DNA of 64,000 nt, from the NCBI GenBank assembly GCA_000004695.1, contig CM000151.3, forward strand, positions 1,824,001 through 1,888,000. The letters are read 5' to 3'. Below the pieces are notes generated by a model. That model was not told the DNA's origin, made no database searches, and saw nothing but the letters and a program-made list of their open reading frames with translations. This DNA is from Dictyostelium discoideum. Lineage: Eukaryota. Both the position numbers and the translations under genes were made by a program. Every line of letters begins with the position of its first letter. The stretch's first letter is position 1. Of this stretch, positions 1-10,610 are shown in pieces.

Positions 1-701
1 ATATCTTCATCCATTTTTGTTTTTATGCTTTTTTGTCCATATTCACCCAATTTTGGTTTGACTGGTGTTTTGTTGGTCTTGTTTGTTTTGTCTTGTTGTT
101 TCTTTTTTGGTGTGTTTAACAATTTACTTGGTGAATCGATAATTTTCGATGGTGTACCATAGGTTGGGCTGAAACTCATGATATGTTTTATTGGAGAGGA
201 GAAGAACCATTGATTTGAAGGGATTGAAAGTGGGAATTCTATTTTTCTTATTGCATCAGTGTTTGGGCTGGTGAAGTCGAAGATATCATTTGCCTCTCTA
301 AGTTTTTCTTCCGTTGTTAGTCCCTTTGTTTCGCCGTGTTGTTTTATTGGTGTATTGTATGGAGATGGTGGTTCGATAGGTTTTTCTGATTTTGTTTTAA
401 TTTCTTGATTGTTTATCGATTGTGTATTGATCTCATTCTCTATTCTTGTTAGTTCATCTACGTTTTCTAGTGATGCTTCTATTACCTTTTGAGCTGTATC
501 ATCTAGGGCCATAAATGTTTTATCATTAAATGAGGATGTGATTGGTGGGATAATGATTGTTCTTTTTCCTTGTTTTGGTATTTGTTCTGATGTAGATTGT
601 GGTTGTTGTTCATCTGATTGTTTTTTATTTTTGTTTTCTTCTTGATTTTCTGGTAATGAGGTTTGATCTCTCCATCCTTTGTTGCAGTGTCCAATTAAAT
701 G
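1..701 (-). CDS. partial ORF open to the window edge (>230 codons), K/P/T/S-rich product (MALDDTAQKVIEASLENVDELTRIENEIN... SPTYGTPSKIIDSPSKLLNTPKKKQQDK...); second ORF of the putative retroelement or a host gene
   Basis: Hand translation of the minus strand shows no stop from 701 to 1, with an ATG at 512..510. It is not in the ORF track because it is not closed inside the window. The frame differs from ORF 712..1176. Confidence 0.35.
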
Positions 702-711
702 TTAGATTTGT

Positions 712-1176
712 CTAGTTCAATGGATAAGTGTCAAATTCTTCTACGACTCTTTTCACTGTTTTGATAATTAGAGTTTCGCCTTTAATTTCTAATTTAATTA
801 GTTTACATCCTTCATTTTCTATTACCCATTCTATTTCTGTGAGTGATTTATACCAATCAAAATCTGTATACATATTTTTTGGTCTTATAGTGGTTATAAA
901 TTGTCCTTTTAATTCTGCATCAAACATATTTACAAAATAGATTACTGTACTAATACTGTCTGTGAGAATTTTGAATGTATTATTACTTTTGATTAAAACA
1001 TCTTTTTTGTCCAAACTTTTTTCTAAATCTTTTTTTATTTTATCGTCTGGTTCGTGATTGATGTTTATGACGTATTTGAATTGTTTTTTTTTTAATTGAG
1101 TTTTATCCACAATTTCGCTTATTTTTTGTAGGCATTTGTGTTGCTTAATATTTGTGGTGTTGTTTGTGATTTTCAT
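712..1176 (-). CDS. 154-aa ORF, candidate ORF1 of a TRE5-like element (no recognisable domain)
   Basis: ORF-track ORF with an ATG start at 1176. It lies ~80 bp downstream (minus sense) of a poly(A) tract and is followed after 11 bp by a long ORF in another frame. Confidence 0.35.
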   Translation of the reverse strand: MKITNNTTNIKQHKCLQKISEIVDKTQLKKKQFKYVININHEPDDKIKKDLEKSLDKKDVLIKSNNTFKILTDSISTVIYFVNMFDAELKGQFITTIRPKNMYTDFDWYKSLTEIEWVIENEGCKLIKLEIKGETLIIKTVKRVVEEFDTYPLN

Positions 1177-1252
1177 CTTATTTTCTTTCTATTTTTTTTA
1201 TTTTTCTTTAAAAAGTTAAAAATCTGGAAATTTTCTGATTAACTTGGGTTCC

Positions 1253-1285
<33 letters not shown>

Positions 1286-1288
<3 letters not shown>

Positions 1289-1548
1289 TCTTTTTTATAT
1301 GAAAAATGAAATAATCAAAAAAAGAGATTGTTGTTGTTTGTTTTTTTCGATCTGATTATTTTTTGCTTTTTTTTTGAAAATTTTGCTACGCAAAATTCTC
1401 AAAACGAAACAAATAATAAATTACAATAAAGTAAAAAGATGGCTTTTTAAAATAGTTTATTTATTTATTTATTTGTTTTTTAAGTCTTTTTTATATGAAA
1501 AATGAAATAATCAAAAAAAGAGATTGTTGTTGTTGTTTGTTTTTTTCG
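1286..1548. repeat. two direct copies of a ~67-bp unit (1286..1352 and 1478..1548) separated by ~125 bp; poly(T)28 at 1255..1283 on the + strand
   Basis: Near-identical strings 'aagtcttttttatatgaaaaatgaaataatcaaaaaaagagattgttgttgtttgtttttttcgatct' are seen twice. Read on the minus strand this is unit, spacer, unit, then poly(A). That layout resembles the 3' end (C-module plus poly(A) tail) of a 5'-truncated non-LTR retroelement. Confidence 0.7.
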
Positions 1549-1598
1549 ATCTCATAACCAAGGGTAAATAAAACTGTTTTGAAAAATAAAACATCAAA

Positions 1599-1671
1599 GG
1601 TTTTATAGTGTAATTGGTTAGCACCCAGGACTTTGAATCCTGTAATCTGAGTTCGAGTCTCAGTAGAACCA
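1599..1671 (+). tRNA. tRNA-Gln (anticodon UUG)
   Basis: A 73-nt cloverleaf can be folded by hand. The acceptor stem GGTTTTA pairs with TAGAACC and is followed by discriminator A. The anticodon stem CAGGA/TCCTG encloses the loop CTTTGAA, giving anticodon TTG. The T-arm is CTGAG-TTCGAGT-CTCAG. There is no intron. Confidence 0.85.
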
Positions 1672-1698
1672 CTTTTTTCTCTCACCAAAAAGGTCGCA

Positions 1699-1709
1699 GG
1701 TTCAATTCC
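1699..1709 (+). promoter_or_regulatory. external B box (exB) downstream of the tRNA gene
   Basis: GGTTCAATTCC sits ~28 bp 3' of the tRNA and matches the B-box consensus GGTTCGAATCC. Such ex-B boxes are typical of Dictyostelium tRNA genes. Confidence 0.6.
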
Positions 1710-4380: not shown

Positions 4381-5867
4381 GTAATATTATTATTAATATT
4401 GATAATAATAATAATAATAATAATAATAATATTAATATTAACAATAATAGTGAACCTATGATAATCATGGATTCAAATAGTAATAATAGCAATAATAGTA
4501 GTAATAATAGTACATCACCATCGGAAGCAAATGATGATATAAAAAATAATAATAATAGTATTAATAATAATAATGATGGTAGCAATAGTAACAATAATAG
4601 CAATATCAATAATAATGAAAAAGCTTTTACTTTATTAAGTGAAACTTGTAAGTTCTTTTTCTTTCTTGTTAACAATATTGATACTATATATATATATATA
4701 TATATATATAAATATTAATTTATATATTATTAAATTTATTTCTAGATATGGATGTCTTTGGAATATTACCATCTAAAGACCCATTAGTTTTAGTGGTTTG
4801 TCATAAATGTTCAAAGCCTGTTAAAAAATCAAGATTCATTAATCATTTTGAAAATTGTTTAGGAACAGGTGGTAATAATAATTATTGTAATAGTAATAGT
4901 GGAGTTTTAGACAATACTAGTAGTGGTAATAGTACTACGGCAGCGGTAAATGGCGATACAACAACATCATCAGTAGTAAATGATTCAAATATAAATTCAT
5001 CAACAACCTTAACAGCACCAATTACACCAAATCCAGTGACTAATGCAAAAGGAAATAAATCAAATCCTTCTCCTGACCCAAAGAAAAAAGTAAATGCAGG
5101 TATAGGAAGAGGTAGACCAAAGAAAAAGGTTGATCCTCCTAAAATACCAGAAGTAATCACAACTCCAATTGTTGATTCAACCACCACTTCTACTTCTACT
5201 TCTACTTCTACTACTACTACTACTACTACTTCTACCCCTACAAATACAACCATTGAAAATCTATCACAATCTTCTTCTCAATCATCCTCACAATCATCTA
5301 ATAATCTAGATACACTTATAGCAACAAACAATCCCACCAACACCACTACCACCACAATAAATAGTACAGATGTATTAATACCGACAAATGCAACAACCAC
5401 ATCAACAACAACAGCAGCAGCACCAATAACACCAACAACAACAACAGTAACAACACAACCAACAGAACAACAAGTTGTAAAAAAAATGGGGGCAATGCAA
5501 CCATTAACAGCAAGAAAAAGGAACTATGATTCTTTGAAATCATCTTCGTCCTCTACACCAATTGTTCCAAGTACAAACAAACCTTCACTTGAAACTTGTC
5601 CTGAAGGTGATACACCATCAAAAAATACTTTAGATACTAATAATGATAGTACAACAACAACAACAACAACATCAGCAACAGCAACAACATCAGCAATCGC
5701 TTCTCCAGGAGCAACAGCAGCAACAGATACTAATACTACACCATCATCATCAACCACAAATGAACCAAGCAGTAATGTTAATAATTCTGAAGATTCTACT
5801 AAAATTGATAAAATGGAAATAGATGGCGATAATAATACTTCCGATAATAATAATAGCAATAATGGCA

Positions 5868-5924
<57 letters not shown>

Positions 5925-6007
5925 GTAGCAATGATAATAATAATAGCAATAATAATAATGATAATAATAATGATAATGATAAAAATATCAACAACAACAA
6001 TAATAAC

Positions 6008-6042
<35 letters not shown>

Positions 6043-6753
6043 TAGTAATAACAACAATAAAGAAGAAACTAAATTAGATACAAAATTAATTAATTCAATA
6101 GGTTGTAATGGTATAGTTACAATGGTAGTACCATTAGCATATAGAACTCTTAATTGTAGTATCATTAATGAGAATAAAAGATTTAAGAATTTATTTTCAC
6201 CTGAAAAAGTTAAAGTTTCATTAACATCTGAAGATGATACTGACGATTCAGATGATAATGATGGTGATGATGATACAACAATGATGATGACGAATATAAA
6301 TAATGAAAAGAAATCTTCAAATAAAAATAAAAATACCATTATTACACCATTAGGTATATCACCATTACTAATTAATGATATACTTTTAAATGCATCAATG
6401 AGAGCAAAAAATTATCAACAACAATTATTAATGCAACAGCAATTACAACAACAATTAAAACAACAACAAATACAGATTCAACAACAACAATTGATACTAC
6501 AACAACAAGCTCAACAACAAGCTCAACAAGCTCAACAACAAGCTCAACAACAAGCTCAACTACAAATGCAACAACAGCAAATACAACAACAACTGCAACA
6601 ACAGCAACAACAACAACAACAACAACAACAATGGACTTCTCAACAAACACATACAAATACAACACCAAATATGGTTTCAAAGATTTCAACAACGCCACAA
6701 ACTAGCAATAATAGTAATAAACCTACATATGCACCACCACCTCAATTCCAGAC

Positions 6754-6836
<83 letters not shown>

Positions 6837-8559
6837 GTAACACCAATATTAATAATAACAATAATAATACATCAATGAATCCACCAACACCTAATTCTTC
6901 AACATCAATGAATCCACCAACACCAAACACTTCAATGAATCCACCAACTCCAAACACTGTAAATACATCAATGAATCCACCAACTCCAACACCTGCAACA
7001 CCTTCAACACCTTCAACAATGATGAATCCTCCTACACCTGTTACAAATAGTATTTCAACATCATCTTCATCAGTACCAACCACAACCACAACTACAACAA
7101 CAACAACAACGGAAAAAGAGAGTAAAAAAGAATCTAAACCAAAGAAATTAACTAAAAAAGAAAAAGAAAAACTAGAGAAAGAAAAGGAAAAAGAAAAAGA
7201 AAAAGAAAAGAAAAAGAAATCTAAAAAAGATAAAGATAAAGAAAAAGATAAAGAAAAAGAAAAAGATTCTGAGAGTAAGTTTATTTTTTTAAAATTATTA
7301 ATTATTATTGTTTTAAGAATTGATTATTAATAATTTTTCCATTCATTTTTTATTTTATTTTTTATCCGAACACCCAAACAGAAAAATCCAATTCCAAAAA
7401 GAAAAAGGAAGATAAAAAACTTAGCAATAGTTCAGGCGCTGTTACAGCATCGATTATTAGCGAATCACCAACTGCAGCATCATTAACAACTTCAACAACA
7501 GCAACAGCAACAATGACAACAACAACACAACCACCTGTATTAGTGCCAAATCAACCTCCAACACCTAACCAATTGGTAAATTCAATGTCACCATCACCTT
7601 CACCAACAATACAACAACAAAATATTCTACCAACACAACAAATTCAACCACAAATTCAACCCCAACAACAAATACAATCACCCCAACAACAATTCCAACA
7701 ACCACAACCACATCAACAACAATTCCAACAACCACAACCACAACCACAACAACAACAAAATATATCACATTTACAACCTCCACAAATTTTACAACAACAA
7801 CAACAACAAATACAACAACAATTACAGCAACAACAATTACAACAACAACAGCTTCAACAACAATTACAACAATTACCTCCACAAATACTGCAACAATTAC
7901 AACAACAACAATTACAACAACAACAACAACAATTACAACAACAACAACAACAACAACTTCAAACACCACAAATTTTACTTCAAAATCAAAATCAAAATAT
8001 AAATATGAATTTAATTAATCCACAATTATTCCAAGCAAATCAAATGATGTCATCACCAAATATTGTTTATGCAAATTCTCCATTACCTCAAAACCAAAAT
8101 CAAAACCAACAAAATCAAAATCAAAATCAAAACCAACAACAAATATTAACTCAACAACAATTACAACAACAACAATTATTAAAACAACAACAGTTACAAC
8201 AACTTTACTATAGGCAATTAGCACAACAACAACAACAACAGCAACAGCAACAACAACAAAATAATACTCAATTAAATAATAGTGGAGGATTTCAACAACA
8301 ACAATTTGCAAATAATAACCTAAATATACCCCAACAACAAGTACCATCACCTCAAATTGGGCAACAACAACAACAACAACAATTACCTCTTGGAATTCAA
8401 CCTCCACCCCAAATAATACAAAATATGCAACAACAACAACAACTTCAACAACAACAATTACTACAACAACAATTACTACAACAACAATTATTGCAACAAC
8501 AGCAACTACAACAATTACAACAACAACAAAACAATAATAAACAATATATTCCACAATAA
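3873..8559 (+). CDS. three-exon gene encoding a ~1490-aa low-complexity nuclear protein with an Sgf11/ataxin-7-type C2HC zinc finger and an AT-hook; exons ~3873..4647, 4746..7274, 7382..8559
   Basis: Introns run from GTAAGT at 4648 to AG at 4745 and from GTAAGT at 7275 to AG at 7381. Both are phase 1 and AT-rich, and they join track ORFs 3873.., 4748..7330 and 7513..8559 in frame, as checked codon by codon. The zinc-finger motif is CHKCSKPVKKSRFINHFENC (C-x2-C-x12-H-x3-C with the SRF..H.E.C signature). The AT-hook is GRGRPKKK. The protein also carries poly-N, poly-T and poly-Q runs, TSMNPPTPN repeats and a KEKEKE tail. Confidence 0.7.
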
Positions 8560-8688
8560 TTAAATACTAGAATTATTTGTGGAAAATAATATTTATTTTA
8601 AATTTATAATTATTTTTATTTTTATTTTTATTTTTTTATTTTTTTTTTTCTTAATATAAAATACAAAGTGTTTTTATTTTTAAATTGA

Positions 8689-10610
8689 TTAATTTGATTT
8701 TTCATGATCATAACCATAATCAATACTATTACCCAAAGTTGAGTTATTATTATTGTTATTATTATTAATAATTGGATTTGAAGAAGATGATAAATCTTTT
8801 TGAGTTACAACATCTAATTCTTTGGAATTAGCATTAGCATTATCATCAGTCATTGGAGTATCACCATTTAATTCATCCAAAACTGATTGATCAATTTCTT
8901 TGAATCTATAGGCAATAATGATAAAGATAAAGATGAATACAAACATTACAGAACCAAATAATAATGATAAAACATATTCTGGTAATTCAATTAATTCAAT
9001 TACAAAAGCATCAAACATATTACCAATGGAAACACAAATTAACCAACCTGCAATTACCAATGATTTCATAGAACGTGGTGAATTTGCATAGGCAAATTCT
9101 AAACCAGTGATTGATAATAAAACTTCAGCGGCAGTCAAGACAACATATTGTGGTATTTGTAAAGCGATATGTACAGATTCTGGTGGAGAGTTATCAATAT
9201 GAACTTGAATAATAGCTGAAATGTAAAATGCAATCACAGACAAAAACATACCGGTACCCATTCTACGAAGGAGTGTGAAATTAATCTTCTTTCTTTCCAA
9301 TGGACGATAAATACCATATTCAAAGATTGGTACGAAAATCATAACCAATAATGGATTAATACAATTGATAATTTCAGAATCAATTTCCCAACTTCCTAAA
9401 TGTCTATCCATAGAATTGGCTTGAATAGTCCAACGAGTACCAGTTTGATCATACAAAGCCCAGAAGAATGGTAATGGTACAAACACTGTTAAAACTCTTA
9501 ATACCAATTTCACTTGTTCAACAATTCTTGGTGAATATTTTAATTTGGCTCTGTCCAAGAAACTATTGTTATAGTAATGGTCATTGTATTTACTACCACG
9601 GAATGTTTTCTTTACACTTTCAGAGATACCGGTACCAACGATACAGAATGCAGTTGATAAAACGGATCCTTGTGGTTTACGTTTAACATATTGTTTATTA
9701 CCAACTAAATAAATTAAAATTGAAATAATTAATATACCAGCTGGAATTACAAATGCACACCAATAACCAACATTAGTTCTTAAAATTGGTGAAAGAATTG
9801 ATGAAAAGAATGATCCTAAATTTACACACCAATAAAATACTTGGAAAAGATTTTGAAGTAATTTCTTTTGATGTGGACCAAATTGATCACCACAAAATGA
9901 ACTTACAACTGGTTTAATACCACCTGTACCAATTGCAATACAAGTTAAACCAACAATTAAACCTAATTTTTTTTTTTTTTTTTAAAATAAATTTAATTAA
10001 TAAATTATTTTAATTTTTTAATTATTATTTTTTTTAAAATAGTATTTAAATATTTACCCCATGGTGATCTTTCACCTGGACTGTCACCAGTAATTCCTGG
10101 AATTGCAGTAATTGAAAAAATAGCAGCTCCAAAACAATATAAAATACTGAAATATAAAATTGTTTTGTATTTTCCTAAAACACCATCAGCAACATAAGCA
10201 CCAACAAGTGAACTTTTTTTTTTTTATAAAAAATAAATAAATATTAATAACTTTTTAATATTTTTTAAAAATTTAATGAAATTTACTTACAAAATATAAG
10301 CACCAGCATTAAAACCGTGACCAATTGAAGAAGCATTTTTTTCAGAATATCCCATGAAACTGATTAAATAATTTGTTAAAATACCTCTTAAAGCATAGTA
10401 TGAATACCTTTCACAAATTTCATTACCCATAATATATTTAATTGATGATGGAAAATGATTTTCATCCCCTCCATAAACAAAAACTTCATTATCAATACCT
10501 TCCATATCACCTTGTTTACCTTTAGATGAACCCTTTCCATCAATTGATGACCCTAAATTATCAATTGATGTTGATACACCAGAATTTGATGATTCTTCTT
10601 CTATCGCCAT
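8689..10610 (-). CDS. proton-dependent oligopeptide transporter (POT/PTR2 family), 3 exons: 10610..10291, 10212..10058, 9962..8689 (~582 aa)
   Basis: PTR2 signature 1 is GNEICERYSYYALRGIL. Exon 2 encodes GAYVADGVLGKYKTILYFSILY. Exon 3 encodes GTGGIKPVVSSFCGDQF and FYWCVNLGSFFSS. The donors are GTAAGT and GTAAAT, the introns are AT-rich (~78 and ~95 bp), and the phases are consistent. Confidence 0.85.

Follow-up and report, generated by a model that had tools for sequence, protein, structure and literature searches.

What does the repetitive sequence upstream of a tRNA-Gln(UUG) gene, apparently on chromosome 2 of Dictyostelium discoideum AX4, represent: a single transposable element, several elements nested within one another, or a host gene beside a fragment of an element? 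The stretch in which it lies, the window, is 64,000 nt in length. A sequence-only reading had recognised the tRNA gene, with its external B box (ex B box), and a TRE5 element on the opposite strand at the canonical distance from it, but had divided the region into more than one copy, with a host gene as the alternative for the part carrying open reading frames (ORFs). Positions 1–1553, on the minus strand, appear instead to be the 5' part of a single TRE5-A element (formerly DRE), an L1-like retrotransposon without long terminal repeats (non-LTR), situated 45–46 bp upstream of the tRNA-Gln gene, and the probability of this can be put at roughly 95%.

The element in the window is 98.3% identical over 1,569 nt to a copy at locus L009 and 97.9% identical over 1,285 nt to a copy at locus L008, both from another D. 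discoideum assembly. Over the region as a whole, identity to multi-copy D. discoideum elements is 98%, and the features are not due to chance, where an absence of similarity to Dictyostelium retroelements had previously been allowed for. Moving away from the tRNA gene, the layout is an extra G, an A-module, a 68-nt partial A-unit, a run of 29 A, a B-module, and ORF1. The features are as follows:

1599..1672, plus strand: tRNA-Gln(UUG) gene, identified by ARAGORN and by the Rfam tRNA model (67.4 bits, E 7.6e-14)
1554..1598, no strand: 45 bp spacer that separates element and tRNA gene, collinear with the empty-site allele exactly from 1554
1..1553, minus strand: 5' portion of TRE5-A, from its identity to the L009 and L008 copies and the absence of the block in loci L004 and L006
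1553, minus strand: an additional G at the 5' junction, in place of which there is T in the empty-site allele; C precedes the tandem A-units
1354..1552, minus strand: A-module, 199 bp (published length 200 bp, PMC3159450)
1286..1353, minus strand: partial second A-unit, 68 nt, which ends a tandem array of 1.34 copies
1257..1285, minus strand: internal A29 run before the B-module, T29 on the plus strand
966..1256, minus strand: B-module, 291 bp, made up of 80 nt of 5' untranslated region (UTR) and codons 1–70 of ORF1
1176..712, minus strand: first 150 codons of ORF1 in the authentic frame, then a tail read out of frame up to a premature stop (714–712), a 154-aa ORF
701..1, minus strand: ORF1 continued, about aa 158–390 of 444, 233 aa and open at the window edge
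685..726, minus strand: disrupted patch of 42 bp with a net +1 frameshift, from a three-way alignment with L008 and L009

The duplicated units followed by an A-run that had been described before are present, but they are 68–71 nt rather than 67 bp and the run is A29, not A28. They lie on the minus strand at 1552->1483 and 1353->1286, with a period of 199 bp, and the sole difference between them is one 3-nt ACA indel.

The published organization of TRE5-A is AB-ORF1-ORF2-BC-(A)n, with A of 200, B of 290, and C of 134–137 bp in an element of ~5.65 kb (PMC3159450), and the sizes measured here are 199, 291, and about 137 bp, the last of these taken from relatives. The ORF1 ATG, at 1176, is inside the B-module, and the published B-module likewise contains the start of ORF1 (PMC3159450). 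Of the TRE elements, TRE5-A alone is stated to have a duplicated B-module (PMC3159450); window positions 1285->966 match the 3' B-modules that follow ORF2 in other copies at 89–99% identity, with 99% for the 3' B-module of L008. The G at 1553 corresponds to neither element nor target sequence and is therefore probably a non-templated nucleotide, and such nucleotides are frequent at the 5' junction (PMC5391098).

The junction, at 1553|1554, is 45–46 bp from the tRNA +1 position at 1599, and the element is on the minus strand with its 5' end facing the tRNA gene. Insertion of TRE5-A is reported to be 47 ± 3 bp upstream of tRNA genes and in opposite orientation to them (PMC3159450, PMC5391098, PMC5911963). 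The distance of ~49 bp given in the sequence-only reading is corrected to 45–46 bp, and the assignment to TRE5 on the opposite strand can now be narrowed to TRE5-A.

The remainder of the element can be described from full-length relatives. In these, ORF2 encodes 1047 aa in the -1 frame relative to ORF1, with a reverse transcriptase (RT) domain (Pfam RVT_1, E 2.5e-33), visible IGVWNVQG, LLTETN, GDFN, and SDH motifs, and a Cys/His-rich stretch (CxxC...H....C) toward the C-terminus. The ORF2 stop codon is followed by an A-run, a B-module, a ~137-bp segment ending ...GCGTTATCCAATTC, and oligo(A); in L008 the 3' B-module is followed by the C-module and A10, and there is an equivalent arrangement in L003. 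It had been noted that neither ORF of the window shows apurinic/apyrimidinic endonuclease (APE) or RT motifs. Indeed, Pfam searches of both returned no domain and only noise, the intact ORF1 likewise being without a match, and APE and RT are not seen in the window because ORF2 lies beyond its left edge.

The two consecutive ORFs previously seen at 1176..712 and 701..1, in different frames, are present as described, and they are one gene, ORF1, split by a frameshift. By tblastn, ORF1 aa 1–150 are encoded in one frame (1176->727) and aa 159 onward in another (698->). The first 150 aa are 99–100% identical to ORF1 fragments of AX4 and to the intact 444-aa ORF1, while the product of 701..1 is 97–98% identical to aa 159–362 of the homologous protein P0015 and to the ORF1 of L009. 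Both ORFs match many D. discoideum "hypothetical proteins" at 97–100% identity, several of which span the gap between the ORFs uninterrupted (...EEFDTIIELDNLTLIGHSNKGWRDQ...); the protein collection has no entry for the exact 154-aa ORF. The intact ORF1 of L008 and L009 encodes 444 aa with a mass of 51.28 kDa, and the ORF1 protein of TRE5-A is published as 51 kDa (PMC5911963). The window copy has Ile at ORF1 position 10, and a published mutant of TRE5-A ORF1 is I10* (PMC3159450).

From alignment, the order A-module, 68-nt partial A-module, A-run, CCTGGGAACCC..., ATG is seen to recur in independent copies:

D. cf. discoideum: recurrent layout adjoining tRNA-Thr(UGU)
L003, from another D. discoideum strain: recurrent layout adjoining tRNA-Lys(CUU)
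L009: recurrent layout with no tRNA gene in the stretch examined

This recurrence bears directly on the proposal of a nested array, in which a recent TRE5 insertion at 1255–1550, truncated at its 5' end and carrying a poly(A) of its own, would have come to lie next to the tRNA gene and pushed an older copy, the one with the ORFs, away from it. The 29-nt A-run does separate two repeat-derived blocks on the element strand, and genuine nested arrays exist at other tRNA genes, for example at L003. However, the sequence preceding the A-run is the 5' start of an A-module and not the 3' end of a C-module, which a 5'-truncated copy would retain, and there is no C-module anywhere in the window. The same layout is present in independent copies and in D. 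cf. discoideum, another species-level lineage. An A-run is also found directly past the ORF2 stop codon, before the 3' B-module; in other copies, a run of variable length (~25 to >40 nt) precedes CCTGGGAACC at both 5' and 3' B-modules, which means that it belongs to the B-module boundary and that the A29 at 1257–1285 is an internal run, not a poly(A) tail. The true nested TRE5-A array at L003 (8625–15880), upstream of tRNA-Lys(CUU), consists of a full element with 3' fragments and a further copy behind it. Of the four occurrences of its target duplication, GTGGTTTGTGTAAA, one separates the first element from the tRNA gene, and the other three each follow an oligo(A) tail. There is no duplicate of the target sequence after the A-run in the window, in contrast to every L003 junction, and the nested-array hallmark of a C-module with oligo(A) followed by a target repeat is absent from the window. 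A nested array is thus very improbable here: 1255–1550 is no copy of its own, nor is the ORF-bearing part a displaced older one. The internal A-runs and tandem A-units of TRE5-A mimic nested insertion and should not be read as such.

A host gene at 1–1176 beside a small retroelement fragment might be suspected, given that neither ORF has a Pfam domain and that the homologues are labelled "hypothetical protein" by NCBI, yet this sequence is multi-copy, adjoins the A and B modules without a break, and is followed in full copies by the ORF2 that encodes the RT. The ORFs are those of TRE5-A ORF1, three other strains have none of the block at the orthologous locus, the flank being 99.6% identical in one of them, and the host genes that actually adjoin the site are DDB_G0272530 and a member of the CfaA_B_C family, all of which leaves a host gene scarcely credible. 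As to the family, TRE5-B and TRE5-C share with the window element the target window, the orientation, and the two-ORF non-LTR design, and are set apart here by published descriptions. Neither has the 3' B-module, and in TRE5-B the C-module is missing as well (PMC3159450), whereas both modules are present in the window lineage, in copies 98–99% identical to the window; the ORF1 mass of 51 kDa and Ile10 also fit TRE5-A. DGLT-A, a Ty3/gypsy LTR element of D. discoideum, and yeast Ty3 likewise target sites upstream of tRNA genes via the RNA polymerase III (pol III) machinery, but these have LTRs and an integrase and insert ~15 bp upstream (13–33 bp), and DGLT-A has a single gag-pol ORF. None of this is seen here, where the element has neither LTRs nor integrase and is at 45–46 bp. 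It is therefore highly unlikely that the element is TRE5-B, TRE5-C, or DGLT-A. With TRE5-A (A.1/A.2) the window element has in common the A-B-ORF1 order, the module sizes, the ORF1 sequence (51 kDa in intact relatives), the 3' B-module in near-identical copies, the distance of ~47 bp, the 5' end turned toward the tRNA gene's 5' end, and the extra 5' nucleotide. There is no difference of kind, the window copy having an ORF1 broken by the 42-bp patch.

Some observations weigh against assignment to TRE5-A or limit how it should be taken. The B-module makes up 28% of the 5' UTR side, a smaller share than the published "about half" (PMC3159450), and the 68-nt partial A-unit was not found mentioned in the TRE5-A literature covered. 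The N-terminus of ORF2 in relatives gives a weak, although nearly full-length, match to Exo_endo_phos (E 1e-3) that is below the Pfam cut-off. The window spans the 5' part of the copy only, the 3' two thirds being to the left of its edge, and the end of ORF1, ORF2, the 3' B-C modules, and the oligo(A) are known from relatives. The family call was made from structure, published sizes and features, and 98–99% identity to full copies, and it is to TRE5-A as a whole, which takes in both A.1 and the ORF2-deleted A.2.

The orthologous tRNA-Gln gene is without the window element in three other D. discoideum assemblies, two of which (L004 and L006) have clean empty sites. The insertion is therefore polymorphic between strains. 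In L004, 10.4 kb of flank match the window at 99.6% identity, with position 1554 exactly as the first to match, and there is no TRE5-A sequence. L006, from a more distant strain, is empty too, and its left flank is homologous to the left flank of L004; both are therefore ancestral empty sites. Together these define the target as ...TTGTT|ATAACCAAGGG, with the L004 sequence to the left of the insertion point including ...GGAATAGTATTTATTGTTGTT. The left end of the 1554..1598 spacer (ATAACCAAGGG...) is predicted to be the right copy of the target-site duplication, which for the window element would begin ATAACCAAGG.

In the third strain, at L007, there is a different insert of ~630 bp (8319–8944), with a T-run at its left end and the orthologous AATGACCAAGCC on its flanks. 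It lies ~48 bp upstream of the orthologous tRNA-Gln gene, at the same nucleotide position as the TRE5-A of the window, and has no match among the compared loci. A filled and empty pair, with another insert at the same nucleotide in a third strain, points to precise and recurrent pol III-guided integration.

Two stretches to the left of the insertion point in L004, 8313–8525 and 8926–9091, have a coding-like GC content (~0.3) and open frames that reach the target site, although no gene has been called there. TRE5-A may therefore have inserted near a small gene or exon that is missing from the annotation.

A TRE5-A insertion at tRNA-Gln is in itself ordinary and already known, and it matches the published biology of the element. 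Work on TRE5-A at tRNA genes goes back to the late 1980s, and the element is present at about one in four of the tRNA genes of D. discoideum. As a textbook TRE5-A insertion, the one in the window has little discovery value. The steps by which such an insertion would arise are taken from the literature. From the A and B boxes to which it binds, TFIIIC would position TFIIIB upstream of the tRNA gene, where TFIIIB subunits would be bound by the TRE5-A ORF1 protein. The ORF2 endonuclease would then nick ~47 bp upstream, just beyond the TFIIIB footprint, and TRE5-A RNA would be copied in place by target-primed reverse transcription, leaving the 5' end of the element facing the tRNA gene. The A-module, which is the published RNA polymerase II (pol II) promoter for plus-strand RNA, would drive transcription away from the tRNA gene and may be enhanced by it from its upstream position, and the stem-loop of the C-module would be required for retrotransposition.

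Whether the window copy could itself supply the ORF1 protein depends on the patch at 685–726. Within these 42 bp there are four 1-nt insertions (726, 725, 709, and 699) and three substitutions (724, 723, and 685), and these produce the shift in frame and the stop at 714–712. Outside the patch, the window copy is ~99% identical to intact copies. The cluster could be real mutation or an error in the reference assembly; with ORF1 as written, the copy cannot encode a full-length ORF1 protein. The HLIGHC at the start of the second ORF, considered as the tail of a CCHC knuckle, was rejected, because the consensus here is TLIGHSNKG, without Cys, which makes HLIGHC a chance product of the mutated patch.

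In L009, near a chromosome end and in a locus in which no tRNA gene was found, the A-module is present in 8.5 tandem copies (4511–6194, period 199 bp, 99% identical) ahead of a TRE5-A ORF1 that is intact. Compared with the 1.34 units of the window, this shows that the copy number of the promoter module varies between elements. The array of L009 ends in the same partial unit as that of the window, and in the copies aligned the A-module array always closes with this 68-nt partial unit and an A-run. Full and partial A-units have lineage-specific variants in common, a pattern which, as far as sequence comparison goes, indicates that the units probably evolve in concert. Regeneration linked to replication was considered for this sharing of variants and set aside, since with the 8.5-copy array of L009 ordinary tandem-repeat dynamics are explanation enough. 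TRE5-A has been reported to carry multiple A-modules. If variation of the A-module is unreported, promoter copy number could tune the expression of the element. The full reading, in which the A-module is an unreported variable-number tandem repeat that evolves in concert and whose copy number may tune expression and, separately, the 685–726 cluster in this young copy is a localised error-prone event and not an assembly error, is unlikely.

Other arrangements involving TRE5-A were noted among the compared loci. L008 (1–8350) carries a head-to-tail dimer in which ORF2, an A-run, and a B-module are followed by an intact ORF1, an intact ORF2, an A-run, a further B-module, the C-module, and A10. 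The first B-module doubles as the 3' B-module of one unit and the 5' B-module of the next, and the dimer looks like the result of recombination or template switching between B-modules. At L001 (9004–9840), two ~380-bp tandem units, 84% identical, and a 32-bp exact flank repeat separate a tRNA-Leu(UAA) gene from a TRE5-A copy whose first part is the partial A-unit.

The tRNA-Gln(UUG) gene is the only tRNA gene found in the window by ARAGORN, and the earlier recognition of it and of its ex B box stands, on the ARAGORN and Rfam results and the uniqueness of the box sequence. Its associated features, all on the plus strand, are:

1606–1616, plus strand: A box of tRNA-Gln(UUG), TAGTGTAATTG, read on the sequence from the motif TRRYNNARYNG (PMC5391098)
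1651–1659, plus strand: B box of tRNA-Gln(UUG), GTTCGAGTC, read on the sequence from the motif GTTCRANNC (PMC5391098)
1673–1678, plus strand: T6 run, a pol III terminator, by direct reading of the sequence
1699–1709, plus strand: ex B box, GGTTCAATTCC, 26 nt past the 3' end of the tRNA

The motif GGTTCRANNCC has one match in the 64 kb, which is GGTTCAATTCC, against an expectation of 0.23, and this sequence is kept at the identical place in three other strains (L004, L006, and L007). Being unique in the window and conserved in these strains, it fits the external B box, which is a documented feature of social-amoeba tRNA genes (PMC5911963). The TRE3 elements of D. discoideum, which are related L1-like non-LTR elements, take their landmarks from tRNA genes and from the external B box. 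No match to TRE3 or another repeat was found 3' of the tRNA-Gln gene (1673–2470) among the compared loci or elsewhere in the window.

The adjoining host gene, DDB_G0272530 (2463..3368), encodes a Cys-rich protein of 301 aa that has a signal-peptide-like N-terminus and a weak match to DUF7107; conserved counterparts exist in D. citrinum and D. dimigraforme.

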